Shown: positions 1-24,586 of the stretch, piece after piece
How the letters are laid out: each line of letters starts with the position of its first letter
Position numbering within the stretch: the stretch's first letter is position 1
Source: Actinomycetes bacterium
GTDB taxonomy: Bacteria > Actinomycetota > Acidimicrobiia > Acidimicrobiales > Palsa-688
NCBI GenBank assembly: GCA_021809105.1
Contig: JAKBAM010000002.1
Coordinates: 201,025-265,024, forward strand
DNA: 64,000 nucleotides
Direction: 5' to 3'
Translations under genes and position numbers: made by a program
Notes under the pieces: generated by a model
Told to the model about the DNA's origin: nothing
The model's input: only the letters and a program-made list of their open reading frames with translations
Database searches by the model: none

Positions 1-3000
1 TCGTCGCATGCGGCGACGACCCGGCCGCCAAGTCGTCGACGCTGGCCTGCGACAGCCAGTACACCTTCGAGGATGCCTGCGTGCCGGTCCTGTACCCAGG
101 CGACCAGCAGGAGGTGCTCGACCTGGGGGTGCACGCCTTTTACATGTCCCGATTCGCCGGGTGCTGGGTCGGTATCAAGATGGTGACTGCCGTCGCCGAC
201 GGCATGGGCACCACCGACCTCGGGGCCGACCGCCATCAGCCGTCGGCCCCTCTCGGTGTGCACGTGGACGGGGAGCCCTGGACCCACCGGCCGCTGACGA
301 CCGTTGGGACCCACGCCGTTCCCGGTCAGGAGATGCTGGTCGCCCACAGCCGGCTGGAGGCGGCCAAGGCCTATGCGCGCCACAACGGGATCGATCGGGT
401 CCTCGGCGCGGCTGCGGGCGCCCGCCTGGGGGTCGTCTGCGCGGGCAAGACCTACTTCGACGTCGTGCAGGCCTTCGCCGACCTGGGTGTGGGACTGGGC
501 GACCTCGAAGGGATCGGGATACGGGTGATGAAGCTCGGCATGACCTGGCCCTTGGTCGAGCAGACCGCCATCGAGTTCGCCTCGTCGGTCGAGGAGATCC
601 TCGTCGTGGAGGAGAAGCGCCCGTTCGTGGAATCGCAGCTGCGGGCGGTGCTCCACGAAGCCGGTTTGCGCACTCCTGTCTCCGGCAAGCGTGACGGCAG
701 CGGGAGCCCGCTGGTGTCGCTTGCCGGCGAGCTCGACCCGTCCGCCGTGCAGAAGGCCATTGTCCGGCTGGTGCCTGAGCTGCAGGCGCCGCCCACCGCC
801 ACCAGGAAGACCATCCCGCTCGTACCGCTGCCTGGCCGGCCGCCCGGCTTCTGCAGCGGGTGTCCTCACAACCGGTCCACCGTCTTCCCCGACGGCGCCC
901 TGGTGGGGGGCGGCGTGGGATGCCACGGAATCATGTACTTCGAGGCCCGGCACCTGGGAATGCGGAGCATGCCGCCGACCCCGATGGGAGCGGAGGGCGT
1001 GCCCTGGATCGGCTTGGCTCCCTTCGTAGAGGAGCCCCATCTGATCCAGAACCTCGGTGACGGCACGCTCAGCCACTCGGGCACGCTGGCTATCAGATCC
1101 AGCGTCGCTGCGGGGGTCGACATCACGTTCAAGATCCTCTACAACACCGCCGTCGCCATGACCGGCGGCCAGGAGGTCACCGGCTTGATGGACGTCCCAT
1201 CGATGACGCGAGCCCTGCAGGCCGAGGGTGTAAGGCGCATCGTGGTCTGCGCAGAGGACCCCGGCCACTACGGCCGTGGAGCCAGTTGGGCAACGGGAGT
1301 CGAAGTCGTGGGGCGGGAGCGGCTGGCGAAAAAGCAGGAGGAGCTACGCCAGGTCCCAGGCGTCACGGTGCTGATCTACGACCAGCGCTGTGCGGCCGAG
1401 GCCCGACGGCTGCGTAAGCGGGGCCTCCTGCCCGAACCTCCGCAACGGGTGGTGATCAACGACGCCGTGTGCGAGGGATGCGGCGACTGCAGTACCAAGA
1501 GCAACTGCCTGTCGGTCCTCCCGTTGGCAACTGAGTTCGGCGAGAAGCGGCAGATCCACGACTCCTCCTGCAACCGCGACTACAGCTGCCTCGAGGGGGA
1601 CTGCCCGTCCTTCGTCACCATCACCCCGATCAAGAAGCAGGAAGGCCGCAAGCCGGCGGGAACCTGGAGGCCGCTGCCGGCCGGGGACCTCCCACTGCCC
1701 CAGGTGCCAGAGGTCGAGTCGCCCTACGGCATCTATTTCACCGGCATCGGCGGGACCGGAGTCGTGACCGCCAACCGCATCCTGGCCAGTGCAGCTCGCG
1801 CCGCCGGTTTCCACGTCGGCGGCCTGGACCAGACCGGACTATCGCAGAAGGCCGGGGCGGTGGTCTCGAATCTGCACCTGGCTCGCCACCGGGAGCAGCT
1901 GGGTTCGGCGACGATCGGTTCCGGCGGCGCCGACCTCTACCTGTCCGGCGACATCCTCCAGGCGGCCGGCGAGAAGCATTTGGACAAGATCGGCGCAGGT
2001 CGGACGGTAGCGGTGGTGGATCGTGACGTCACCCCGACGGCCGCCATGCTGCAAACAGCTTCGGTAGCTCCCGACGTCAACGACCTCGAAGCAGTCATCG
2101 CCGATCGGACAGGCCCCGACCGCGTCGCCTTCGTCGACTCGAAGGTCATGGCGGAGGCCCTCTTCGGCAACCACCTGCTGGCCAACGTCATCCTGGTGGG
2201 CGCCGCTTTCCAGATGGGAGGTCTCCCGTTTGCGCTCGATGACCTGGACCTGGCGATAGGTGAGGTGTCGCCCGGTGGTGCGGAGCAGACCCGGGCGGCC
2301 TTCGCATGGGGTCGCTGGGCCGCCCACGACCCGGCCACCGTCGCCGGGGCAGTCGTCTCGGCGGCCGGCGCCGTTGATGGCGCGGTGCCTGGGGTCCACG
2401 ACCCCACTCCGGCGGCTATGTCGGCGGCGGAATCGCTGGTCGCTTCCCGCGACCTGCCCGACGGGGTCAGGGACCTCGCCACCCGCCGGACGGCGCAGGT
2501 CATCGACTACCAAGACACCCGGCGTGGCGTCCGCTACCTCGAGCTGGTGGCGAAGGCGGCCGCGGTCGACTCGGCCGCCCGGATGTGGGCCCTCACCGGG
2601 GCCGTCGCAGACGCCTGGTTCAAGCTCCTCACCTACAAGGACGAGTACGAGGTGGCCCGCCTGCATCTGGCGTCGGATTACCCCCAGCTTGCCCGACAGC
2701 TCGGTATCGACGGTCCCGTCGAGGTTCGCTACCACCTGCACCCGCCAGCGCTGAGGCGCCTCGGCCTGTCACACAAGCTGGCGATGGGGCGGCCGTACGA
2801 GATGTCGTTCCGGGCGCTGAGGGCGATGAAGCGGCTGCGGGAGACGCCACTCGATCCTTTCGGTCGCGACCCCGATCGTAGGGTAGAGCGGGCTCTGATC
2901 CGGGAGTACGAGCGTCTCTTCGCCTCTCTGGGGGGAGTCGACTACGAGACCGCTGTCCGCCTGGCCCGCTCCCCGATGGCGATCCGCGGATACGGGCCGG

Positions 3001-3089
3001 TCAAGCAGGCAGCGGTGGAGCGATGGCAGCGTGACGTGACCGAGCTGACTGGGGGACACTTCGTGCCTCGCCTGGCCAGATCCCGATGA
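1..3089 (+). CDS. indolepyruvate ferredoxin oxidoreductase family protein (fused IorA/IorB type), 5'-partial; runs off the window start
   Basis: The frame is open from nt 3. GDDPAAKSSTL and DSQYTFEDA match the thiamine-PP/POR family. CEGCGDCSTKSNC is a 4Fe-4S ferredoxin motif. About 150 aa of the usual N-terminus are missing. Confidence 0.85.
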   Translation, partial: VACGDDPAAKSSTLACDSQYTFEDACVPVLYPGDQQEVLDLGVHAFYMSRFAGCWVGIKMVTAVADGMGTTDLGADRHQPSAPLGVHVDGEPWTHRPLTTVGTHAVPGQEMLVAHSRLEAAKAYARHNGIDRVLGAAAGARLGVVCAGKTYFDVVQAFADLGVGLGDLEGIGIRVMKLGMTWPLVEQTAIEFASSVEEILVVEEKRPFVESQLRAVLHEAGLRTPVSGKRDGSGSPLVSLAGELDPSAVQKAIVRLVPELQAPPTATRKTIPLVPLPGRPPGFCSGCPHNRSTVFPDGALVGGGVGCHGIMYFEARHLGMRSMPPTPMGAEGVPWIGLAPFVEEPHLIQNLGDGTLSHSGTLAIRSSVAAGVDITFKILYNTAVAMTGGQEVTGLMDVPSMTRALQAEGVRRIVVCAEDPGHYGRGASWATGVEVVGRERLAKKQEELRQVPGVTVLIYDQRCAAEARRLRKRGLLPEPPQRVVINDAVCEGCGDCSTKSNCLSVLPLATEFGEKRQIHDSSCNRDYSCLEGDCPSFVTITPIKKQEGRKPAGTWRPLPAGDLPLPQVPEVESPYGIYFTGIGGTGVVTANRILASAARAAGFHVGGLDQTGLSQKAGAVVSNLHLARHREQLGSATIGSGGADLYLSGDILQAAGEKHLDKIGAGRTVAVVDRDVTPTAAMLQTASVAPDVNDLEAVIADRTGPDRVAFVDSKVMAEALFGNHLLANVILVGAAFQMGGLPFALDDLDLAIGEVSPGGAEQTRAAFAWGRWAAHDPATVAGAVVSAAGAVDGAVPGVHDPTPAAMSAAESLVASRDLPDGVRDLATRRTAQVIDYQDTRRGVRYLELVAKAAAVDSAARMWALTGAVADAWFKLLTYKDEYEVARLHLASDYPQLARQLGIDGPVEVRYHLHPPALRRLGLSHKLAMGRPYEMSFRALRAMKRLRETPLDPFGRDPDRRVERALIREYERLFASLGGVDYETAVRLARSPMAIRGYGPVKQAAVERWQRDVTELTGGHFVPRLARSR

Positions 3090-3769
3090 TCAAGCGCATC
3101 CGATTCGCCCGGCTCCGGCCGGGCGCCACCCCGGAGGACTGGCGCGACACAATGCGGCGCGAAGCGGAGGGTGGTGTCGGGGCGGCTCCTCTTCGGGTGG
3201 TCGTCTGCGAGGTGCTGAGCGGGGACAGTCCGGACGCGCTCCACGACGGTGTGGGCATCGAATGGTTCACGGATGCAGACCACCTCGCTCGGTGCGACGA
3301 GTGGGCGGCCGGCCGGCGCGACGAGGTGCTCGACGGCGCGAGGAGCCCGTTCCTCCTGGCCGAGGAGTCGGTGATGAGGGGTGCTGACTGGCTGGCCCGG
3401 CGCTGGCGGTCGTCAACCGACGTGCTCAAGCACATGGCTCTCGCCCGCCGGGCGGCCGGCCTGACCTCCGAGGAGTTCTCGGCCAGGTGGCGTAGCCGGG
3501 CGGGCACGCTCGGGTCGGCTGCCGGCCCCGTACTGGTCATACCGGAGAGGGCCAAGGGTCAGGCGTACATACAGAACCACGTCCTTCCCGTCCCTCCCGG
3601 CGGATGGCCCTACGACGCCGTCAACGAGGTGTACTTCGATGACATCGAGTCCCTCCGCTACCGGTTGAGCTGGTTCACCGAGAACATGAGCGCTGGCGCC
3701 GAGAACGATCTCGTGAGCACCGCCACCTTCCTCGCATTACGGGAGAGCCTGGTTCTGCCCTTGCGGTAA
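3086..3769 (+). CDS. EthD-like / hypothetical protein
   Basis: ATGA overlap with the upstream IOR stop. 227 aa with two weak EthD-like halves. No strong motif. Confidence 0.4.
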   Translation: MIKRIRFARLRPGATPEDWRDTMRREAEGGVGAAPLRVVVCEVLSGDSPDALHDGVGIEWFTDADHLARCDEWAAGRRDEVLDGARSPFLLAEESVMRGADWLARRWRSSTDVLKHMALARRAAGLTSEEFSARWRSRAGTLGSAAGPVLVIPERAKGQAYIQNHVLPVPPGGWPYDAVNEVYFDDIESLRYRLSWFTENMSAGAENDLVSTATFLALRESLVLPLR

Positions 3770-5102: not shown

Positions 5103-6287
5103 GTGGACAAAGAAGCCCTCGATCGCAGCATCGCCCGGCGGCTCATCGATCACATCGAACACAAGACCACCGACATGGTCGACAGTGTTCTCGAGCTACC
5201 GGCTGACATCTACAGCTCCGACGCGCACTACCGGCACGAGGTGCACGTGCTCTTCAGGCAGCGCCCGCTCGTGTTCTGCCTGTCGGGGGCCCTGCCCGGC
5301 CCGAACAGCTACATCACCATCGACGTGCTCGGGGTGCCCCTGTTGATCACGCGCGACGGCGACGCCAAGCTTCACGCCTTCGCCAATGTCTGTCGGCATC
5401 GGGGCGTGAGAATCGTCGACGGCCACGGCGAGAGCCGTCGCTTCACCTGTCCCTTTCATGCGTGGGTCTACGACACGGCCGGCAAGCTGGTCGGCGTCCC
5501 CGTCCCCGAAGGTTTCGAGGGCATGTGCCGGGAGCGTAAAGGCCTGCTGGAGCTGCCGGTGGCCGAGGGGTACGGGCTAGTGCTGGGACGGCTGGAGCCC
5601 GGGCCGGAGGTTGACGTGGATCGCTACCTCGGGCCCGGTCTGGTCGAGGAGCTTTCCCTCCTGGACTTCGCCGATTGGCAGCTGATCGGTGAGCCGCACA
5701 TCCATCCCGTCGAAGCCAACTGGAAGACGACTCTCGACACGTTCCGGGAGAATTACCATTTCAACTACCTGCACCGCACAACGCTGGCCGAGTACGCCTA
5801 CGGCGGGGTGCTGACCTTCGATGCCTTCGGGGACCACGTCCGCAACGCATCCGCCATCCGTAGCATCGACGAGCTGAGGGGTGTACCCGAGGAGGAGTGG
5901 ACGGACCCCTCCCGCCACTTCAGCTATCAGTACGCCCTCTTTCCCAATGTGTGCCTCGCCTTCGACGCCCGCCATGTCGAGTTCTGGCAGATCGTCCCCG
6001 CAGGCCCCCGCCGCTGCGAGGTGCTCCACATGGCTTACGTGCGCACGGGGATCCCTGATGGAGAGGTCAAGACGCTCACCGACATGGCGCCCTGGATCTG
6101 CCGGGCCGTGGTCGACGGCGAGGACTTCTGGGTGGCAGGGCGCACCGAGCCCGGCTTGTCCGCCGGCCTCCTCGACAAGGTTGTGTTCGGTCGCAACGAG
6201 CCGGCCCCCCAGCACCTGCACCGGGGCTTCCTGGCTGCCCTGGAGCAATCGGACGGACCCTCGGCTTCAGCCCCGTCGGGCTTTTGA
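5103..6287 (+). CDS. Rieske (2Fe-2S) aromatic-ring-hydroxylating oxygenase alpha subunit
   Basis: CRHRG...CPFHAW Rieske motif. GTG start at 5103 preceded by gaggagagag. No beta subunit adjacent. Confidence 0.8.
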   Translation: MDKEALDRSIARRLIDHIEHKTTDMVDSVLELPADIYSSDAHYRHEVHVLFRQRPLVFCLSGALPGPNSYITIDVLGVPLLITRDGDAKLHAFANVCRHRGVRIVDGHGESRRFTCPFHAWVYDTAGKLVGVPVPEGFEGMCRERKGLLELPVAEGYGLVLGRLEPGPEVDVDRYLGPGLVEELSLLDFADWQLIGEPHIHPVEANWKTTLDTFRENYHFNYLHRTTLAEYAYGGVLTFDAFGDHVRNASAIRSIDELRGVPEEEWTDPSRHFSYQYALFPNVCLAFDARHVEFWQIVPAGPRRCEVLHMAYVRTGIPDGEVKTLTDMAPWICRAVVDGEDFWVAGRTEPGLSAGLLDKVVFGRNEPAPQHLHRGFLAALEQSDGPSASAPSGF

Positions 6288-6968
6288 CGGTGTGATGGGC
6301 GGGAAGAAGCCCCGGCAGGTCCCCTCGGCGGCCAGGGCCACCGCCCGGTCTCGGTCGAACTTCCGATTGTGATGGCTCTCGAGGGCCAGGACGAGGGCTG
6401 TCCCCAGGACGGCCCTGGCCGAGATGTCCGGCGACTCGAAGTTGAAGCCGTACCTGTCCTCCACCTGCCGCCACGCGTCGGCGAGGCGATCCATGGCCAC
6501 GGAGAGATGCTGCTTGTAGAACCGCCTGGCGACCTGAGGGTCACCGAAGAGCACCAGGCCCAGGAGCGGGAGGACCTCCGTCAAGGTGGCCATGAGCTGC
6601 CGGTACAACCCGTTCATGGTCTCGAGCTGGCGATCGGGCGTGAGCGGCTGGTCCCGGTCGACGACCTCCGAGGCTGCGACCAGCGCATCGACCGCCTCGC
6701 GCAACGGCTCGACAACCGCTTCGTAGAAGAGTTGCTCCTTGCTCTCGAAGTGCCGGTAGATCACCCCCTCGCTGATCTTGCCGTACTCCGCGATGACCTT
6801 GATGGTGGTGCCGTTCACGTCGCCTGTCTCGCTGAACGCGCGACGGGCTGCCTGGAGGATCGAGCTCCTTCGCTCGTCCGCGGTGAGCCGGCGGGCGCGT
6901 GGGGCCTGCTTGGAAGCGACCGGGTTGGACGCGGATCTAGCCACGGGGCCTGACAGGTGCGCTGGCAT
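6267..6968 (-). CDS. TetR/AcrR family transcriptional regulator
   Basis: HTH region SSILQAARRAFSETGDVNGTTIKVIAEYGKISEGVIYRHF. ATG at 6968 chosen; the ORF extends to 7166 but the extension is low-complexity. Confidence 0.7.
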   Translation of the reverse strand: MPAHLSGPVARSASNPVASKQAPRARRLTADERRSSILQAARRAFSETGDVNGTTIKVIAEYGKISEGVIYRHFESKEQLFYEAVVEPLREAVDALVAASEVVDRDQPLTPDRQLETMNGLYRQLMATLTEVLPLLGLVLFGDPQVARRFYKQHLSVAMDRLADAWRQVEDRYGFNFESPDISARAVLGTALVLALESHHNRKFDRDRAVALAAEGTCRGFFPPITPSKARRG

Positions 6969-7061
6969 GGGTATGGGCACGCGGCGACATGCGGTGATCC
7001 TAGGCGAGGCGACTTCGGCGGAATTGACCTCCGGGATGCCGCCCGCGGGACTGGATCCGGC

Positions 7062-7090
7062 TGTCAAGTGAGTGTTTACTGACATTGCCC
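7062..7090. promoter_or_regulatory. AT-rich inverted repeat TGTCA-N14-TGACA in the TetR/ACAD divergent intergenic region; candidate operator/promoter
   Basis: ctgtcaagtgagtgtttactgacattg is AT-rich within about 70% GC DNA. It lies between divergent genes 6968(-) and 7165(+). Confidence 0.3.
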
Positions 7091-7164
7091 GGGTCGGGCG
7101 TGTGGAGCTACGGTTTGACCGACCCGGTCGAGGGGTCTGGACTCGTTGCCGAGGGTGAGGGTGC

Positions 7165-8313
7165 ATGGACTTCGAGATGGGGGTAGAGGTCGAGGCGCTG
7201 CGTCGGGAACTGCGGGACCTCGTCGCGCATCACGTTCCTTCCGATTATCTGGGTGCGTTCACCGACGACCCGGCCGACCTCGAGATGGCGCAGGGGTTCT
7301 GTCGGCTACTGGCGGACCGGGGCCTCTTGTGCCCGGCGTGGCCGGGGGAGTGGGGCGGGCGGGACGCGTCACCTTGGGAGCAGGCTGCGGTCCGCGAGGA
7401 GATGTGGGCGCACCACGAACCGCGAGGTGCGCAGTACATGGGGGTCAACTGGGTGGGCCCGACCATCATGCGTCACGGCACTCGTGAGCAGCAGGGCCTG
7501 CACCTCCCGCCGATCGCTCGAGGGGAGGTCATCTGGTGCCAGGGTTTCAGCGAACCGAACGCCGGCTCGGATCTCGCCTCATTGCAGACGATGGCCCGGC
7601 GTGACGGGGATGGCTGGCGGGTGTCGGGACAGAAGATCTGGACCTCCTATGCCACGATGGCGCAGTGGTGCTTCCTGCTAGCGCGCACCTCGCGCGAGGA
7701 GCGCAAACAACAGGGTCTGACCATCTTCCTCCTCCCGATGGCGGCCGCGGGCATCGACGTCCGCCCCATCGCCACCATGATCGGGCCTCACCACCTGAAC
7801 GAGGTGTTCTTCGATGGGGTCTGGGTCACCGATGCGGACGTGCTCGGTGCGGTGGGAGACGGCTGGAGGGTCGTACAGGAAGTCCTGTCGTTCGAGCGGG
7901 TGGGTATCGCCCGATACGCCCGATGCGAGCGCCTTCTCATCTGGGCTCCGGCCGCCCTCGGGGCCGAGTGGGACGACCTGCCGGAGGACCTGCACGGCCG
8001 TTGGGCGCGGATGGTGATGCATGCCCGGCGCGCCCGGCTGCTCGCATACCGCGTGGTGGACCTGCAGTCGCGCGGTCAGGTCCGGCCCGGGGACGCCGCG
8101 GCGTACCGGATCGCCGTGACCAGGCTGGATCAGGAGAGCGCGCAGGTACTGATGGACATCATCGGGTTCGCTGCGCTGGGCGAGGGTGAGGGCCTCCGGT
8201 TCCGGCGCGCTGTGGAGGATCACTGGCGGTACTCGATCTCCGCGACCGTCGCGTCGGGCAGTATCGAGATGCAGCGGATCCTGCTGGCCAGGGCGCTCAT
8301 GGCGGCGTCGTGA
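7165..8313 (+). CDS. acyl-CoA dehydrogenase family protein (alpha-type subunit)
   Basis: ACAD fold across the N, middle and C domains. 382 aa. Confidence 0.85.
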   Translation: MDFEMGVEVEALRRELRDLVAHHVPSDYLGAFTDDPADLEMAQGFCRLLADRGLLCPAWPGEWGGRDASPWEQAAVREEMWAHHEPRGAQYMGVNWVGPTIMRHGTREQQGLHLPPIARGEVIWCQGFSEPNAGSDLASLQTMARRDGDGWRVSGQKIWTSYATMAQWCFLLARTSREERKQQGLTIFLLPMAAAGIDVRPIATMIGPHHLNEVFFDGVWVTDADVLGAVGDGWRVVQEVLSFERVGIARYARCERLLIWAPAALGAEWDDLPEDLHGRWARMVMHARRARLLAYRVVDLQSRGQVRPGDAAAYRIAVTRLDQESAQVLMDIIGFAALGEGEGLRFRRAVEDHWRYSISATVASGSIEMQRILLARALMAAS

Positions 8314-17481: not shown

Positions 17482-18231
17482 ATGACATGGAGCAAGATCT
17501 TCAAGCGGGCCAACAGCTACGCACAGGCCAGCGCCCAGGCGGCGTTCGACGAACATGCTGATCCGCGGATCCAGCTGGAGCAGGCCATGAGCAGCATGCA
17601 AGCCCACCATCGCGACCTGGAGGCCGCGGCCAGCCAGGTCATCGCCCAGGAGAAGACCGCCAAGATGCGCCTGGCGGACCTCTCGACGCAGGAGGCCCGG
17701 TACACCAAGTCGGCTCTGGCCGCCAAGCAGCAGGGGCAACTGGACGCGGCCCGCACCTTCGCCACCAAGATCGCCGGTTTGCGCGAGCAGCTCCAGTCGC
17801 TGTCGGGCCAGATCCCAGAACTCGAGCAGGCGGCGGCTGACGCCCGAGAGGCGGTGCAGGAGTCGGCTGACCAGCTGCAGCAGAAGTTCAACGAGCGCAG
17901 CACGATCCTGGCCCAGGCCGACCAGGCCCGGATGCAGAAAGAGGTGGCGGCGAGCCTCCAGCAGGTCAGCGATCTGACCCGGAGTGGCGACGTCCCCTCG
18001 TTCGACGAGATCAAGCAGAAGGTCGCCGGGCAGTTCGCGATCGCGCAGGCCTCCACTGAGCTGTCGAGCGAAAGTCCCGAGGTGCAGGAGATGCACGCCC
18101 ATCATGCGGAGCTGACCAGTGAGGCGGACGCCATCCTGGCCGAGCTCGACAGCGGTACTGCCGGCCCGGCCGCGCTCAGCCCCGGGTCCCCGCAGCCTGC
18201 GTCTGCCGTCGAGGGTCAGGCGGCCCGCTGA
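17482..18231 (+). CDS. pspA: PspA/IM30 family protein (phage-shock protein A / Vipp1-like)
   Basis: Coiled-coil PspA N-terminus MTWSKIFKRANSYAQASAQAAFDE...LEQAM. GGGAGG RBS. Confidence 0.85.
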   Translation: MTWSKIFKRANSYAQASAQAAFDEHADPRIQLEQAMSSMQAHHRDLEAAASQVIAQEKTAKMRLADLSTQEARYTKSALAAKQQGQLDAARTFATKIAGLREQLQSLSGQIPELEQAAADAREAVQESADQLQQKFNERSTILAQADQARMQKEVAASLQQVSDLTRSGDVPSFDEIKQKVAGQFAIAQASTELSSESPEVQEMHAHHAELTSEADAILAELDSGTAGPAALSPGSPQPASAVEGQAAR

Positions 18232-19048
18232 GGCTGGCCCCTCTCTGTCCCCGCCCGGGCCCGAAGTACGCGGTGATGACGACGGCCAGGTAGCCGCCGT
18301 ACACGATCAGTTGGAGGATCGTCGGATGGTCGGAGTATCCGAAGAAGCTGTGGACGATGTCACCTGCGGTGCTGCTCTGCTGTAGCAGCCGAGAGGTGCT
18401 CCAGAGCCGGTCGGCGAGCCAGGGCACCCATCCCAGTTCCTGAAGGTTCTGTACCGCATCGACGAGGATGCCGGCCGCGAAGATCATGAGCAGGGCGCCC
18501 ACCACCTTGAAGAAAGCACCGATGTTGAGGCGCCTCCCGAGGTGGTAGATGGCGAAGGCGATCGCCAGCGACACGACGAGGCCGGCGGCGCCCCCGGTGA
18601 GGACACCCTTGGAAGACGACGCGAACACGATGGCCAGCGTGAACACCATGGTCTCAAGCCCCTCCCGACCGACCGCTTGGAAACCGAGGAGTGCCAAACC
18701 CCAGCGGGCGCGGCCGTCGAGCGCGGCATCGGTCCTGGCGCGGAGGTCTTCTGAGAGGGTGCGGGAGTGGTCGCGCATCCAGAACGTCATGTAGGTCAGC
18801 ACGACGGCAGCGAGCAGGTAGGTGCCCGTCTCGAAGATCGTCTGGGTGCGGGAGCCGGCATAGGTCTTGAGCGTCAGGTACGCCGTGACCCCACCAGCCA
18901 GGATCAAGATCATCGCTGCGCCCACGCCGAGGAACACGTCGCGGAAGTGGGCCCGCCGGCCGGTCTGCCTCAGGTAGGCAAGGAGGATGGCGACGATCAT
19001 GCTGGCCTCGATGCCCTCCCGCAGGAAGATGACGAAAGTCGCTACCAC
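18176..19048 (-). CDS. FTR1-family high-affinity iron permease (EfeU-like)
   Basis: Two REXXE motifs (REGIEAS and REGLETM) and 7 predicted TM segments. Confidence 0.8.
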   Translation of the reverse strand: MVATFVIFLREGIEASMIVAILLAYLRQTGRRAHFRDVFLGVGAAMILILAGGVTAYLTLKTYAGSRTQTIFETGTYLLAAVVLTYMTFWMRDHSRTLSEDLRARTDAALDGRARWGLALLGFQAVGREGLETMVFTLAIVFASSSKGVLTGGAAGLVVSLAIAFAIYHLGRRLNIGAFFKVVGALLMIFAAGILVDAVQNLQELGWVPWLADRLWSTSRLLQQSSTAGDIVHSFFGYSDHPTILQLIVYGGYLAVVITAYFGPGRGQRGASLSGPPDPRRQTQAAGTRG

Positions 19049-19051
19049 ACC

Positions 19052-19065
19052 TTAGGTATACCTAA
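19052..19065. promoter_or_regulatory. perfect 14-bp AT-rich palindrome TTAGGTATACCTAA 3 bp upstream of the FTR1 start; candidate metalloregulator (IdeR/DtxR-like) operator
   Basis: The half-sites TTAGGT/ACCTAA resemble the iron-box consensus TTAGGTTAGGCTAACCTAA. It is the only strongly AT-rich spot in the 53-bp intergenic region. Confidence 0.4.
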
Positions 19066-19101
19066 TATCAAGCTGCTGGTCAACCTCTGAGAGTGGGGCG
19101 C

Positions 19102-20067
19102 TCAAAACAAGCCGTCGCCGTCCCCACCGAACCCTCCGCCACCGAACCCTCCACCGCCGAAGCCGCCACCTCCTCCCCAGCCGCCACCCCCTCCACCGAA
19201 TATCTCGTCTGCGATCGCTCCGCCGAGGAGGCCTCCGAGCAGGCCACCACCGATGCCGGAGAACAGCCCACCCCGCCGGCCTTGCCCGATCTGAGGATAG
19301 GACTTGATCATCGAATCGAGGAACGAGGGAGGACGCCCCTGGTCGGGCTCTGTGGCCCGGGAGCGGTGTGGGGCGTCGGCCAAGCTCGGCATGGCGATTA
19401 CCTGGCCTACGTAGAAGTAGGACTCGATGGCGTGCTTCAGGCTCGCCTCGACGGCCTCGTGCAGCTTGGCTGGCGGTGCCCCCTCCCCGGGCCACAGGCC
19501 ATTGGCGTAATCCGCCGCCGAGTTGGCCTCCGCGAACCCCTGCGCTACGACTTCGGTGGCGTGGCGCTGCGTCGGGCCGGGGTCGAACCCCGCCATGACG
19601 GCCTCGGCCTGCTCTCGCAGCCGAGCTGCGGCCTGCCTGAAGGCCAGGAGGTGGGCCTGCGGGCAGGGCTCCACTTCCACCCACTCGGGCATGATCTCCG
19701 GCACGGGAACGTCGAGGCGGTACGAAGGGTTGGCTCTGGCTGCTTGGGCGCGCCCCATCCACGACTGCACCGGCTCGTAGAAGGCCATGGCCTGTTCGGC
19801 TGTGACCCGGGGGAGGTAGTGGGCGGTCGAAGGGTCGATGGCCGCATCGGTGTCGAGCATCTCGTCACCGAGCACCTGCAGGGCGAAGGCCACCCAGCCG
19901 GCGAGCAACGCCGCCTGGATGTTCGGACGGGACGCTTCCGACCTCATCTCGTCCAGCTCCAGGATGTAGCTGTAGACGCCACGGCCGGCCGCTCGGTAGG
20001 GGTCGATGCCCTCGCGCGAGACCTCCCCGTGTGTCGACGCCTTGAGCTTCTCACGCCAGTTGGACAT
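19102..20067 (-). CDS. hypothetical protein with C-terminal glycine-rich tail ([10 protein letters not shown] repeats)
   Basis: GGAGG RBS 7 nt before the ATG at 20067. The tail reads ...GGLFSGIGGGLLGGLLGG...GGGGWGGGGGFGGGGFGGGGFGGDGDGLF and is encoded by tandem nucleotide repeats near 19111-19215. Same strand as FTR1, directly upstream of it. Confidence 0.55.
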   Translation of the reverse strand: MSNWREKLKASTHGEVSREGIDPYRAAGRGVYSYILELDEMRSEASRPNIQAALLAGWVAFALQVLGDEMLDTDAAIDPSTAHYLPRVTAEQAMAFYEPVQSWMGRAQAARANPSYRLDVPVPEIMPEWVEVEPCPQAHLLAFRQAAARLREQAEAVMAGFDPGPTQRHATEVVAQGFAEANSAADYANGLWPGEGAPPAKLHEAVEASLKHAIESYFYVGQVIAMPSLADAPHRSRATEPDQGRPPSFLDSMIKSYPQIGQGRRGGLFSGIGGGLLGGLLGGAIADEIFGGGGGGWGGGGGFGGGGFGGGGFGGDGDGLF

Positions 20068-20138
20068 CAAAGACCTCCGAGCAATGTCATTTGCAGCCAG
20101 GCTACTTCGCATGCGCGCTGGCTAGTGTCGGGTCGGTG

Positions 20139-20522
20139 AAGGACGTTGCGGTACACGCAGACCTCGCAGTGCGCTGGTTGGTGGCTCGCGCCGCCCAGCT
20201 CGTGGACGATCGGGACTTCGACGCGGCGCTGCACCTGTTCGCCGACGACGGCTTGGTGATCCAGGGCGGCGAGCGCCACGCGGGCCGCCAGGCGATCAGG
20301 TCGTGGCTGGAGGCCCGGCCGTCGCCGGCACTGCACCAGGTGACCAACCTGGTCGTCAGCAATGGCTCGCACGATGGAGTGCTGCACGCCGTCAGCGACT
20401 TCGTCGTGCTACGGCCGGCCGATGGTGAGTGGCGAGTGTCCGGGGTGGGCCGCTATCACGACACCCTCGCCGGGATAGGTCGCGAGGTGCATTTCACTCA
20501 ACGGATCGTCACGCTGCGCTGA
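20139..20522 (+). CDS. NTF2-like / SnoaL-like domain protein
   Basis: The small alpha+beta pattern LVDDRDFDAALHLFADDGLV is typical of SnoaL_2/DUF4440. Start uncertain (GTG 20139 chosen; ORF begins at 20091). Confidence 0.45.
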   Translation, partial: KDVAVHADLAVRWLVARAAQLVDDRDFDAALHLFADDGLVIQGGERHAGRQAIRSWLEARPSPALHQVTNLVVSNGSHDGVLHAVSDFVVLRPADGEWRVSGVGRYHDTLAGIGREVHFTQRIVTLR

Positions 20523-20535
20523 GCGCTCGGCTCCT

Positions 20536-21388
20536 CTAAAACTGCTCACGGTGCCGTTGTCGCCGTGAGCGACCGTCGGGGTCGTAGACGGTTCCATACA
20601 GTGCTCGGGCCCAGAGCGGGTCCCTGTGGCCTGCCGCCGGAGGGGGCATGATGCGCAGGCGCCCCGCCGGCCGGGGTCGCATCCGCACCGCCTGGTTGCG
20701 GCCGACCGCGTTGAGGGGAAGCGACAGCACCCCGTCTCGGTCCGGGTGCAGCGGGAGCACAGCGACGAGTAAGAGCCCGGGACGTGACCGCAATGCGTCG
20801 CAGAAGGTCGCCTCTATGTCGCCGACCGCGGGCCCGCGGACTGCCAGCTGAAGGTCGTGCCAGGGCGGTCGGCGGCCGTATACCGTCGCCATCGGTTGGG
20901 ACTGTGGATCGCCATCGTGGTCCCGGTCGTCGCGCCTGCTGTGGCACAGGTCGATGCCCCCGAGGAAGGCCACATCCAACCAGGGGCGTTGCGGGTGGCG
21001 CAGCACGACGAACTTCTGGTGGTGAGAACCACCCGGCCGGACGCGCATGTCGAGCAGGCAGACGCCGCCCGCGGCTTCGATCTCCTCGCCGAGATGGCGG
21101 TTCTCCCGATCCGAGAAGCGCAGCCGGTCCATGTGAGACCGCCAGATCAAACCCCGGACGATCACCCCGCTCCCCCGCTCGGCACAACAGGCCGCCGACG
21201 GTGTCGTCCCCCGCGGCCAGGCGCTCGTCGGGGTCACCGCGCCAGTCCGTGAAGAGGAGGACGTCACCGTCGACTTGTGCCTCGACGGCCTCGGCCAGCG
21301 CTGCGAAGTAAGCGCTCCCATGCACCAGCGGCCGGACGTCGTTCCCAGCCGTCCATCCCGGATCTCCCCGCCGGCGCCGGCCGAGCAT
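20536..21388 (-). pseudogene. phospholipase D-like (HKD) protein, frameshifted
   Basis: The N-terminal PLD-like segment (NDVRPLVHGSAYFAALAEAVE...VLLFTDW) is in one frame. The HKD motif (GGSHHQKFVVL...GGIDL) is in a second frame. The frames switch at a G-run near 21165-21185. Only one HKD is present, and the usual second HKD is absent. Confidence 0.6.
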
Positions 21389-21452
21389 GGTGGCCCCGTT
21401 GGCGCGTTCGCTGGCACTCAGGAACCAGGCAGCGGCCGCCGTCGCCTCCTGC

Positions 21453-22352
21453 TTACCTAAACTTCGCCGGATCCCTTTGGGCGTCCATTCGCTCCGCAAC
21501 CCGCTTGAATCGACCGATGCGGGCGACGGCGCGATCTCGGGCGGACTCGCCCTCGGCGCCCAACCCCTCGACGGTCTCGATGCGCCAATGGTTGATCACC
21601 ACCGGCAAGAGCACCTGCTCGTAATGGACTCCGAAGTCGTACACGCCGGCGGCGGCAATCGCAGCGGCGTGCTGGGCGAAGCCGTCAATGCCGCTCCCCG
21701 GCATCTCGAAGGCGCTGACCTGGCGGTCGATGGCCATCACGGCGTCGTCGGGATCGAGAGCCAGCGCAGCGCTCACCATGTCCCGGTAGAAGAGGAAGTG
21801 GAGGTTCTCGTCGGCTGCGACCCGGCGCAGCACCGCTTGTCCGGTCGGCTCGAGCAACTCACCGGTGTTCCAGTGGGAGATCCTGGTGGCGAGCTCCTGG
21901 AGGGTCAGGTAGACCAAGCCGTCGGTGACGGTGTGGGCCTTCTGCCCTGGGCGGAAGCCGGAACAGAGCTGGCGCATCCGGGCTCGTTCCAGCGCCATCA
22001 AGTCGAGCGTCCGGGTCACACACACCCAGTCTCGGATGACCGTGGCGTGCCGTTGTTCCTCGGCCGCCCACCGCCGGCTCCATTCGCCCATGGCCGAATC
22101 GGGGGGAAAGGCCGTAGCTATGACGTGGAAGTAGTGGGGCAGGTTGTCCTCGGTGAGCAGCCCTACCCACAGGGCGCTAGCAGCTCCTGGCGGTAGCTGC
22201 CCGGCCTCGTCGCCGAGGTCGCTCGGGCTGAAGTCACGCCCGGCTCCCCACGGCACCAGCTGATGGGGGAACCACTCCTTGGCCCGTACGAGGTGTCGCT
22301 CGAGCAGGCCACGAGCGGTGTCCTCGAGCACCTCTGGCAGAGACATGGTCAC
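21453..22352 (-). CDS. acyl-ACP desaturase (DesA-type soluble di-iron desaturase)
   Basis: EEQRH di-iron ligand motif (EENRH-like) and ferritin-like fold signature. Confidence 0.85.
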   Translation of the reverse strand: MTMSLPEVLEDTARGLLERHLVRAKEWFPHQLVPWGAGRDFSPSDLGDEAGQLPPGAASALWVGLLTEDNLPHYFHVIATAFPPDSAMGEWSRRWAAEEQRHATVIRDWVCVTRTLDLMALERARMRQLCSGFRPGQKAHTVTDGLVYLTLQELATRISHWNTGELLEPTGQAVLRRVAADENLHFLFYRDMVSAALALDPDDAVMAIDRQVSAFEMPGSGIDGFAQHAAAIAAAGVYDFGVHYEQVLLPVVINHWRIETVEGLGAEGESARDRAVARIGRFKRVAERMDAQRDPAKFR

Positions 22353-22365
22353 CGGGCGTCGTTCT

Positions 22366-23280
22366 TCATGCGCCGGCCGGGGCAGAACCGTCGACGAGTG
22401 CGTCGGGGCGGCGCTCGAAGCCGAACCTGTACAGCGTGCAGATGCGGCGGTCGAACATCGCCCTCGAAACTCGGAGGTAGCGAAGGTAGCGCCGGTAGGT
22501 ATCGCGGCCGACCATCTCCGTGGCTTCGTCGGCGCTGGCCTCGAGCCGGCGTTGCCACAGCTTCAGGGTTTGCGAATACTGTGCCCCGTCGCTGCGGTAG
22601 GCAACGAGGCGAAAGCGCGTCTCGGCCGCGCTGATGATCTGCCCCAGACGTGGCAGAGACGACTCCGGGAAGATTTCTTCGGTGAAGAACGACGAGACCG
22701 CGCCGGCGGAAGGATCGAAGTCCTCGTAGGCGATGGTTTGCAGTGACATGCCGCCGCCGGGCACCAGCCATCGGGCACACAGGTCGAAAAAATGGGCGTA
22801 GACGCCGGAGCGCGCGGCGTCGTCGAGGTCCTGTCGCGCAAAGTGCTCGAAGGCACCTATCGAGATGATGGCGTCGTACGGACCGTCCGGGCGATGGTCG
22901 CGCCAGTCCTCGAGCCGGATTGCCGTCGTCTCGGCCGGCGCCACCGATGCCGCCTGGTCGGAGCTCAAGGTGAGCCCGGTGACGTGGGCGGCGCGGCGTT
23001 GCTCGGTCAGGTAGCGCAGGTTGGCGCCCCAGCCACATCCGACGTCGAGCACCTTCGTGCCTGCACCTACGCCTGCCGCGCTGGCATGCCAGGCCAGCTT
23101 CGCCTGCTGAGCCGCCTCCAGGTCATCGTCGAGCGGACCGTCCCACAAACCACACGAGTAGACCATGGCTGTGTCGAGCCAGAGGCGGTAGAAGTCGGCG
23201 CCCACGTCGTAGTGATGCTCGATCGCCACTTGAGTGGCTCCGGTAGAAGTCGCCGAGCGGTCGACGCGGGGGCGGGCCAC
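22366..23280 (-). CDS. cyclopropane-fatty-acyl-phospholipid synthase family SAM-dependent methyltransferase
   Basis: HYDVGADFYRLWLDTAMVYSCGLW plus the SAM motif VLDVGCGWGA. Lies 13 bp upstream of the desaturase. Confidence 0.8.
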   Translation of the reverse strand: MARPRVDRSATSTGATQVAIEHHYDVGADFYRLWLDTAMVYSCGLWDGPLDDDLEAAQQAKLAWHASAAGVGAGTKVLDVGCGWGANLRYLTEQRRAAHVTGLTLSSDQAASVAPAETTAIRLEDWRDHRPDGPYDAIISIGAFEHFARQDLDDAARSGVYAHFFDLCARWLVPGGGMSLQTIAYEDFDPSAGAVSSFFTEEIFPESSLPRLGQIISAAETRFRLVAYRSDGAQYSQTLKLWQRRLEASADEATEMVGRDTYRRYLRYLRVSRAMFDRRICTLYRFGFERRPDALVDGSAPAGA

Positions 23281-23359
23281 GCTCGGAACCTAGCGCGATT
23301 GCCTCTCTAGTAGAGTCCGCCCTCCCGGGAAGCGGTTCGGGTTCGGTAGCCGGGAGAGC

Positions 23360-24586
23360 ATGGTGACAGGTGGCGAGGCGACGGTGAAGGGATTGCTCTC
23401 AGAGGCGCGCCTGGCGCCCCCCCACGAGCTGCCCGGCATCCTGAGCCGCCACCTGGCGGCGGTTGGCTGCGCGGAGGCCTTGGCCTACCTCGCCGACCTC
23501 CAACAGAACGTCTTGATCCCCTTTGTGGACCCGGATGAAGTCGAGGGTCAGGCGACGCCGCTAGCAGTGGACTCGACCTTGGCCGGTTGGGTCTTCCAGC
23601 GGATGGAGGTGCAGGTCCAGGAGCTTCCGGGTGGGGCGGCGCGGGTGTGGTTGCCGATCGTCGACGGCGCTGAGCGGCTCGGCGTGCTGGCTGTCAGGGT
23701 GGACGACAGGGCGGTCGTGGCCGGAGAATCCGAACCGCTCCTGGACGAGTTGCACAGCGTGGCATTGCTGCTGGCGGAGTTGATCGTGACCAAGACGCTG
23801 TATGGGGACACGATCGTGCGCCTGAGACGCCAGGCCGACATGGGTTTGGCAGCGGAGATCCAGTGGTCCTTGCTGCCACCGTTGACTTTCGCCAGCACGA
23901 ACCTGGCGATCGCAGCCACCCTCGAGCCTGCCTACGAGGTCGCCGGCGATACGGTGGACTACGCGATCAACTCCGATCGGGCGCACGCCGCCGTGTTCGA
24001 CGCGATGGGACACGGGATGCAAGCCGCACAACTCGCGGTGCTCGCCGTGGCTGCCTACCGGCACGCCCGCCGCCGAGGACGCCCGCTGGCAGAGACGGCC
24101 ACAGCCATCGACGGAGCTGTCAGCGCGGCCTTCGGCGGGGACGCCTTTGCGACCGGCGTCCTGGTCGAGCTGGACACTGCGACCGGCGCCATGCGCTGGC
24201 TCAGCGCTGGTCATCCGGAACCACTTCTCCTGAGGGAGGGCGCGCTCGTCAAGACGCTCCACGTGGAGCCGGTGCTGCCATTCGGGTTGAGCTCGCTGGC
24301 GCCCGGCGTCGGCCCTTCCGTGGGGACCGAGTCCCTCGAACCCGGCGACCGGGTGGTCTTCTACACCGATGGCGCGGTCGAGGCACGTTCGCCGGCGGGG
24401 GAGTTCTTCGGCATCGCGCGACTTACCGATTTGATACTGCGCCACCTGGCCAGCGGCCTGGCCGCTCCGGAGACCATGCGCCGCGTCACCCGAGCCCTCC
24501 TCGAGCACCAGCAGGGCCAGCTCGATGACGATGCGACGCTCCTGCTGGTGGAGTGGCGCTGCGACGAGGGCATGTTCACCTTCTGA
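23360..24586 (+). CDS. GAF domain-containing PP2C-family (SpoIIE/RsbU-like) serine phosphatase
   Basis: C-terminal PP2C motifs AGDTVDY...DAMGHG...VFYTDG. The N-terminal region looks like a GAF. Confidence 0.75.
   Translation: MVTGGEATVKGLLSEARLAPPHELPGILSRHLAAVGCAEALAYLADLQQNVLIPFVDPDEVEGQATPLAVDSTLAGWVFQRMEVQVQELPGGAARVWLPIVDGAERLGVLAVRVDDRAVVAGESEPLLDELHSVALLLAELIVTKTLYGDTIVRLRRQADMGLAAEIQWSLLPPLTFASTNLAIAATLEPAYEVAGDTVDYAINSDRAHAAVFDAMGHGMQAAQLAVLAVAAYRHARRRGRPLAETATAIDGAVSAAFGGDAFATGVLVELDTATGAMRWLSAGHPEPLLLREGALVKTLHVEPVLPFGLSSLAPGVGPSVGTESLEPGDRVVFYTDGAVEARSPAGEFFGIARLTDLILRHLASGLAAPETMRRVTRALLEHQQGQLDDDATLLLVEWRCDEGMFTF

Follow-up and report, generated by a model that had tools for sequence, protein, structure and literature searches.

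An FTR1-family permease gene with a candidate one-dimer iron-repressor site, and its probably unrelated glycine-tailed neighbour, in an Acidimicrobiales genome

Given a gene for a conserved iron permease and, 53 bp upstream on the same strand, a gene for a protein that resembles nothing described, does adjacency mean partnership? The question is raised by a 64,000-nucleotide stretch of contig JAKBAM010000002.1 from an actinomycete of the order Acidimicrobiales (the window, below), in which a minus-strand gene for a 321-amino-acid protein with a glycine-rich tail (the Gly-tailed protein, encoded by the Gly-tail gene) precedes a co-directional gene for an FTR1-type permease, and a 14-bp palindrome resembling an iron-repressor site occupies the spacer. 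The original prediction had read the two genes as a pair, with the upstream protein as an uncharacterised, possibly secreted or membrane-tethered, metal-binding component. Comparison of both genes with their relatives points instead to two unrelated units that probably just happen to adjoin: a permease gene with its own predicted operator, and a Gly-tail gene whose conserved neighbour is pspA.

Conserved neighbours of the two genes

A one-genome-per-species scan with the Gly-tailed protein returned 80 loci (given here by L numbers), of which 14, all from GTDB genomes, hold close orthologues (57-75% identity); with the metagenomic loci L169 (79% identity) and L170, they make up 16 orthologue loci. 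FTR1 was absent within 6 kb in every one of the 14, and no FTR1 gene was found near the Gly-tail gene in L169 and L170, the closest metagenomic relatives (0/16 overall). In the reciprocal comparison, neither the Gly-tailed protein nor PspA was encoded in any of 85 loci carrying FTR1 orthologues (55-80% identity). In the cultured Acidiferrimicrobium sp. IK, the two genes are both present but lie on separate contigs. The original prediction had named absence of the partner beside FTR1 in relatives as evidence against a pairing, and this absence is what was found in both directions.

The neighbour that Gly-tail orthologues do share is pspA. PspA/IM30 is a membrane-repair protein of the ESCRT-III superfamily. 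Its gene adjoins the Gly-tail orthologue in 12 of the 14 genome loci as well as in L169 and L170, that is in 14 of the 15 loci that can be assessed, the contig of L012 ending at the Gly-tail gene itself. It lies upstream and co-directional in L003, where the coding regions overlap by 4 bp, and in L006-L010, L013 and L014, with gaps of about 60-100 bp, and it is directly convergent in L001, L002, L004, L005, L169 and L170. No other neighbour is conserved across these orthologues; the remaining flanking genes differ, and the link with pspA survives the change in orientation. Acidiferrimicrobium sp. IK also encodes a second, ~400-amino-acid paralogue (L016, 5956-7158) besides its Gly-tailed form (L003, 6001-6909), and a separate pspA copy lies directly upstream of each.

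The window shows the convergent layout, with FTR1 and its promoter wedged between the Gly-tail gene and pspA. Since this insert is missing in all relatives, FTR1 would have moved into the gap in this lineage only. We considered a foreign origin of FTR1 and rejected it: G+C content is uniform and the same order supplies the best FTR1 homologues, so recent foreign acquisition is unsupported and the placement of FTR1 suggests an internal rearrangement.

The Gly-tailed protein and its family

The claim that the 321-amino-acid protein has no recognisable domain held up. Searches of Pfam, NCBIfam, PADLOC and PHROGs gave no family match, a profile search against PDB sequences gave nothing below E = 0.3, and Rfam gave nothing relevant. 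A database search returned 66 homologues (the identical protein, P0001, and 65 others), all named 'hypothetical', and those with a source label come from Acidimicrobiales or Actinomycetota metagenome-assembled genomes. We take MSNWREK as the start, since the longer ATG at 20112 has the backing of neither homologues nor public gene calls. AlphaFold2 modelled residues 1-235 as an all-helical bundle with a predicted local distance difference test score (pLDDT) above 90 and the tail as disordered; by this model, the N-terminal domain is a confident helical bundle without a solved relative.

The tail comprises 59 amino acids, 34 of them glycine (58%), with the sequence GRRGGLFSGIGGGLLGGLLGGAIADEIFGGGGGGWGGGGGFGGGGFGGGGFGGDGDGLF. 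In the clade of the window, the C-terminus consists of a basic patch, a conserved glycine-zipper-like segment and variable G4(F/W) units with acidic residues. The tandem repeats described originally are there, though as short imperfect arrays only: Tandem Repeats Finder reported a period of 15 with 3.1 copies and 87% matches (19124-19170) and a period of 18 with 2.7 copies (19148-19200). The accompanying suggestion of slippage fared less well. Across 2100 bp, repeat number included, three independent samples of this species show 100% identity and so give no sign of rapid, phase-variation-like slippage, but tail lengths of 36-68 amino acids across orthologues imply that repeat number shifts over evolutionary time. 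With a 15-nt period, any slippage would keep the reading frame.

The zipper-like segment LFSGIGGGLLGGLLGGAIA is the highest-scoring 19-residue Kyte-Doolittle window of the protein (1.60), a value borderline for a transmembrane segment. Its GGxLLGGxxGG pattern and borderline hydrophobicity, followed by low-complexity Gly/aromatic repeats, recall glycine-zipper (GxxxG) membrane segments, but it has no Pfam glycine-zipper match and AlphaFold2 confidence is low there, leaving a resemblance only. That the tail contacts the membrane is a tentative suggestion, one we would put somewhat below an even chance. By hydropathy, the N-terminus has no hydrophobic segment, with a 19-residue maximum of 0.05 in the first 60 amino acids. 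Secretion is thus not supported, and the protein is predicted to be cytoplasmic.

We also considered a metal site formed by C135, H139, H203 and E215, four residues that close homologues share, and dropped it when a 73-sequence family alignment left only W58 and G221 invariant. Because the Cys and His residues of close homologues are not kept family-wide, the family is unlikely to have a fixed metal site and is better matched by a role as scaffold or adaptor. The proposal that the protein is membrane-tethered or metal-binding therefore retains the borderline zipper segment and an enrichment of the family near metal genes, described below, but not a strictly conserved Cys/His set.

From this context, we consider it plausible, at close to even chances though short of them, that the Gly-tailed protein is a PspA accessory. 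It would act as a membrane-proximal adaptor or anchor for PspA, with the tail contacting the membrane, its clade having swapped the usual C-terminal domain of the family for the glycine-zipper segment and the Gly/aromatic/acidic tail. Psp/IM30 systems are known to carry lineage-specific accessories such as PspBC, LiaI/LiaF, PspM/PspN and PspAA/PspAB (Ravi et al., 2024; PMC11237479), and the Gly-tail gene and pspA similarly form a two-gene dyad that is often co-directional and tight. Like PspB/C, LiaI and PspM, the Gly-tailed protein carries a possible membrane-contact element. It has no Pfam or NCBIfam match to the partner domains described (PspB, PspC, LiaI-LiaF-TM, Toastrack, PspM, DUF3046 and others). 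No public model exists for PspAA or PspAB; PspAA, described as three helices with a sheet of four strands, is set apart by that description from a long helical bundle. The published surveys of Psp partners that we examined describe no protein like the Gly-tailed one.

The helical-bundle domain as a whole is rare, with 272 cluster representatives in a set of 1.84 billion proteins. Beyond this clade, it occurs mostly in proteins of ~400 amino acids whose C-terminal domain is of another, conserved alpha/beta type; these are known from Deinococcota, Armatimonadota, Abditibacteriota, Chloroflexota, Longimicrobium, Amycolatopsis and Streptosporangium. This longer form likewise has no Pfam match and, despite a model pLDDT of 92, no specific solved relative. 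A third C-terminal type, of ~80 amino acids with the pattern WxVxDxxGxxVGxVxRVxGDRxTG, was seen in Gaiellaceae (L067, L070-L072, L075, L077, L078, L080) and looks like a PRC-barrel-type region. 

Several features of the family weigh against a PspA accessory. The wider family is not found beside pspA. Among the close orthologues themselves, L011 is the single one with no pspA nearby, and the adjacency was seen within one order, in Acidimicrobiales-like metagenome-assembled genomes, such that it could in part be inherited synteny and not function. Furthermore, 22 of the 72 family loci with a called homologue have a metal-homeostasis gene within two genes: P1B-type ATPases with HMA domains, RND pumps with CusB-like adaptors, multicopper oxidases, Nramp transporters or ArsR-family regulators. 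In Armatimonadota and Abditibacteriota (L038, L029, L033 and L056, around 6001-7260), the ~400-amino-acid homologue takes the place of X in an operon-like order CusB-CusA-X-ATPase. Gly-tail orthologues share this tendency. Nramp lies downstream in L003 and L013, with ArsR in L003 as well, and a CsoR/RcnR-family repressor gene lies divergently upstream of the orthologue in L004 (5532-5933) and L169 (112-393), followed in L004 by a two-HMA, copper-type P1B-ATPase gene. The metal-stress connection of the family is a real signal. A metal-related role of the Gly-tailed protein is possible, and the FTR1 neighbourhood would then be less accidental. 

The main rival to a PspA accessory builds on these neighbours: the Gly-tailed protein would act in metal stress independently of PspA, and its adjacency to pspA would be synteny inherited within Acidimicrobiales. 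We consider this rather unlikely, at perhaps half the weight of the accessory role. While the CusB-CusA-X-ATPase arrays and the divergent CsoR-family repressors speak for it, pspA is the sole conserved neighbour across orthologues only 57-79% identical, despite the change in orientation. The 4-bp coding overlap in L003 and the paralogue paired with a second pspA in L016 also count against it, and the family offers no invariant metal ligands. The role of PspA accessory is therefore the one we prefer, tentatively.

A separate co-occurrence with an FTR1-like gene, the only other one among the 80 loci, was seen in a member of the Fimbriimonadaceae (L030), where a distant FTR1-like gene (2970-3587, 26% identity) lies two genes from a ~400-amino-acid homologue, with a P1B-ATPase gene between them.

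The permease gene and the palindrome upstream of it

The permease scores 158.2 bits against Pfam FTR1 (PF03239; gathering cut-off 25.3) over residues 1-259 and has two REXXE motifs, REGIE (residue 10) and REGLE (residue 128). Against the NCBIfam EfeU equivalog model it reaches 227.9 bits, under the cut-off of 255, and we accordingly class it by sequence as an FTR1-family member and not as a certified EfeU equivalog. Its homologues number in the thousands, the best of them from the same order. With the EfeUOB, FTR1-P19 and FtrABCD systems it shares the FTR1 fold signature, both REXXE motifs and, probably, regulation by iron. It differs from them in its surroundings. No gene for EfeO (M75), EfeB (DyP peroxidase), P19 or a cupredoxin was found within 8 kb on either side on the source contig, and none of these genes adjoins the orthologues in the contexts examined, which varied. 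Unlike the permease of EfeUOB, then, the protein both falls under the equivalog cut-off and is predicted to stand alone, as an ordinary solo gene. 

The palindrome TTAGGTATACCTAA, with arms and centre TTAGG-TATA-CCTAA, ends 3 nt ahead of the GTG start codon of FTR1. As originally described, it is exact, lies at 19052-19065 in the 53-bp spacer and is unique in the window, where it has no other match even at three or fewer mismatches (0.03 expected by chance). It is an exact instance of TTAGGNNNNCCTAA, the 14-bp consensus for one dimer of IdeR/DtxR, which occurs in the window only at this position at up to one mismatch. The iron-box match claimed for it therefore stands for the one-dimer consensus but not for the complete consensus of 19 bp, TTAGGTTAGSCTAACCTAA, which accommodates two dimers; in the best register, only 13 of 19 positions match, leaving 6 mismatches, and by sequence the palindrome is not a full iron box.

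One-dimer sites of this kind have been defined structurally. Crystal structures of IdeR on DNA show every subunit bound to one of four CCTAA repeats, the apparent dissociation constant of one dimer for a half site is ~78 nM, and from crystal structures and electrophoretic mobility shift assays it was proposed that the consensus be redefined to the 14-bp TTAGGNNNNCCTAA, with the function of one-dimer half sites left for future study (Marcos-Torres et al., 2021; PMC8464063). The palindrome here shares with the Saccharopolyspora erythraea nuo half site of that study the 14-bp consensus, two inverted CCTAA repeats 4 bp apart, a count of 6 mismatches to the 19-bp consensus and a position in the promoter of a gene for iron metabolism. 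In contrast to the published site, it is a predicted site, overlaps the -10/start region of an iron-uptake gene and recurs in dozens of lineages, alternating there with full 19-bp boxes.

This conservation ties the palindrome to FTR1. The FTR1 loci, 488 kb in all, hold 65 exact copies of TTAGG-N4-CCTAA, every one just upstream of FTR1; the window has one, and 866 kb of Gly-tail-family loci searched as a control have none; across the 1.35 Mb of loci compared, the box was seen nowhere but upstream of FTR1. It is present in 53 of 68 distinct FTR1 orthologue promoters, in unrelated genomic contexts, with the arms as the conserved part and the central 4 bp variable. Some orthologues have full 19-bp IdeR-type boxes instead or in addition (L117, TTAGGTAAGCCTAACCTAA; L132, TTAGGGTAGCCTAACCTAA; L095, TTAGGTTAGCCTTACCTAA). 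Because the box is always upstream of FTR1 and is absent from Gly-tail-family loci, we assign the palindrome, as an iron-repressor-type site by sequence, to FTR1.

The spacer also has the geometry of a promoter in which the palindrome takes part. On the minus strand, TTGACC (19083-19078) is followed after 17 nt by TATACC (19060-19055) and after a further 6 nt by the GTG (19048), placing the -35 hexamer at -35 to -30 and the box at -17 to -4 relative to the start codon. Of the 53 box-carrying orthologous promoters, 31 have TTGAC at a distance of 11-12 nt upstream of the box, and the same -10 register, TAnACC, recurs in L084 and L086. In the 70 nt upstream of FTR1 in L089-L168, we distinguished two architectures with the same -35-to-box spacing: the end of the box lies 3-6 nt from the start codon in 19 promoters, as in the window, which implies a leaderless mRNA, and about 36 nt from it in 23, which implies a leader. 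In the window, the TTGACC-17-TATACC spacing puts the GTG at about +1, with no room for a ribosome-binding site, so that the FTR1 transcript is, on balance, expected to be leaderless. 

Under the regulation we propose, one dimer of a metal-dependent repressor of the IdeR/DtxR family would bind the palindrome. When iron is sufficient, the metal-loaded dimer on the -10/start region would block RNA polymerase; when iron is scarce, the dimer would leave and the permease would be made. We hold repressor binding and an iron response of FTR1 to be likely. Several points nevertheless count against this scheme. No IdeR/DtxR gene is present within the window. TATACC does not end in the canonical T, which is why a simple promoter scan makes no call in the spacer; the promoter is assigned from conserved geometry instead. 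Finally, no terminator-like site was found in the spacer, and read-through co-transcription from the Gly-tail gene into FTR1 is therefore possible.

The identity of the repressor deserves separate consideration, since DtxR/IdeR-family regulator genes adjoin FTR1 in two other loci, L132 (3239-3976, divergent) and L144 (1037-1645). Both products match Pfam Fe_dep_repress and Fe_dep_repr_C, have the three-domain layout of IdeR with its SH3-like tail, and share 46-47% identity with Mycobacterium tuberculosis IdeR. Relative to that protein, and in a difference from known IdeR/DtxR systems, these likely cognate regulators both carry Glu for the DNA-contacting Gln43 of the recognition helix. The L132 protein also has Gly for the metal ligand Cys102; the L144 protein keeps the H98/C102/E105/H106 signature. 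These substitutions hint at a divergent subfamily of uncertain metal specificity. FTR1-family permeases are, moreover, not strictly iron-specific. The palindrome might thus be bound by another regulator, such as a manganese-sensing MntR/SirR-like DtxR paralogue or an unrelated dimeric repressor, with FTR1 answering another metal or signal, and the presence of a one-dimer site without a full 19-bp box would agree with this. We consider it improbable, however, as the arms are identical to the CCTAA repeats that IdeR/DtxR recognises (PMC8464063), full 19-bp IdeR-type boxes occur in orthologous promoters, and the adjoining regulators are of the IdeR type, that of L144 with its metal signature intact. 

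Known FTR1 partners act outside the cytoplasm. That the Gly-tailed protein is a new FTR1 accessory that replaces EfeO/EfeB or a cupredoxin within one iron-regulated operon is very unlikely: although the two genes point the same way across a 53-bp spacer that has no terminator, the wider family is enriched beside metal transporters, and other Gly-tail orthologues have different metal transporters nearby (Nramp in L003 and L013, CsoR with a P1B-ATPase in L004), the adjacency is missing at all 16 and all 85 loci, the genes are unlinked in Acidiferrimicrobium sp. IK, the Gly-tailed protein has, by hydropathy, no signal peptide, the family conserves no Cys/His ligand set, and box and promoter lie between the genes, so serving FTR1 only.

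Neighbouring genes and what the locus means

The coordinates of the features are collected in Table 1. The 3´ ends of FTR1 and pspA overlap by 56 bp (18176-18231), again without a terminator-like site; FTR1 transcription under iron starvation would run antisense into pspA, and transcriptional interference between the two is conceivable. On the other side, the start of the Gly-tail gene and a divergent SnoaL-like gene (20091-20522, plus strand) are only 23 bp apart (20067-20091), which implies either promoters inside the neighbouring coding regions or leaderless mRNAs for both. Two long minus-strand ORFs (open reading frames) of 293 and 317 amino acids overlap in different frames at 20536-21499, and Pfam matches neither; in the public annotation the region is divided into genes of 112 and 198 amino acids, one frame holds an HHQKFVVL...GGIDL stretch resembling the HKD motif of phospholipase D, and the region is possibly a gene that has degraded or shifted frame. 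Genes for membrane lipids and signalling cluster at 21453-24586, near the pspA pair, and are not conserved at orthologous loci.

Table 1. Features of the FTR1/Gly-tail locus, in positions of the window.
Feature	Position	Strand	Description or basis
pspA/IM30 gene	17482-18231	+	convergent to FTR1; Pfam PspA_IM30 4e-28; public call of 249 amino acids
FTR1/EfeU-type iron permease gene, predicted solo	18176-19048	-	290 amino acids; GTG start
Spacer between Gly-tail gene and FTR1	19049-19101	.	53 bp; predicted FTR1 promoter and operator; sequence read
Perfect palindrome TTAGGTATACCTAA, candidate one-dimer IdeR/DtxR-type half-site operator	19052-19065	.	unique in window; consensus match; orthologue conservation
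-10-position hexamer TATACC, inside the palindrome	19055-19060	-	-12 to -7 relative to GTG; sequence geometry
-35-like hexamer TTGACC	19078-19083	-	12 nt upstream of box; 17 nt from TATACC
Gly-tailed protein gene	19102-20067	-	321 amino acids, stop codon included in the coordinates; ORF list and public gene call
Variable G4(F/W)/acidic repeat tail, residues 290-321	19105-19200	-	short imperfect tandem repeats
Glycine-zipper-like hydrophobic segment LFSGIGGGLLGGLLGGAIA, residues 268-286	19210-19266	-	conserved in orthologues
N-terminal helical-bundle domain, residues 1-237	19357-20067	-	common to the ~400-amino-acid family in Deinococcota, Armatimonadota, Chloroflexota, Actinomycetota
Acyl-ACP-desaturase-like gene	21453-22352	-	
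CMAS-type cyclopropane/methyl-branch fatty-acid synthase gene	22366-23280	-	
SpoIIE/PP2C phosphatase gene	23360-24586	+	

Adjacency alone would have mis-assigned the Gly-tailed protein to iron uptake; comparative context moves it to the neighbourhood of pspA. FTR1 and its half site probably represent a known type of system, a stand-alone permease repressed by an IdeR-type regulator as judged from the promoter comparison, and what they add is modest, namely the wide natural conservation of one-dimer sites. About 50 independent promoters keep a 14-bp one-dimer IdeR site at an iron-uptake gene, and these are natural test cases for half sites, whose in vivo role was left open by the 2021 structural study (PMC8464063). 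They also suggest that regulon searches by the 19-bp box alone miss targets.

The Gly-tailed protein is the more novel part, its function being read from context. In the most far-reaching interpretation, it would be the founding member of a new, lineage-specific class of PspA/IM30 accessories from an undescribed helical-bundle family, linking metal or envelope stress through its tail to ESCRT-III-like membrane repair, and the FTR1 clade would provide the first broad natural evidence of functional one-dimer IdeR half sites; taken as a whole, we regard this combination as doubtful. The family itself is rare, spans several phyla, is structurally confident and unannotated, and recurs in two contexts, beside pspA and beside heavy-metal efflux genes, and it therefore lends itself to study as a possible new component of stress responses.

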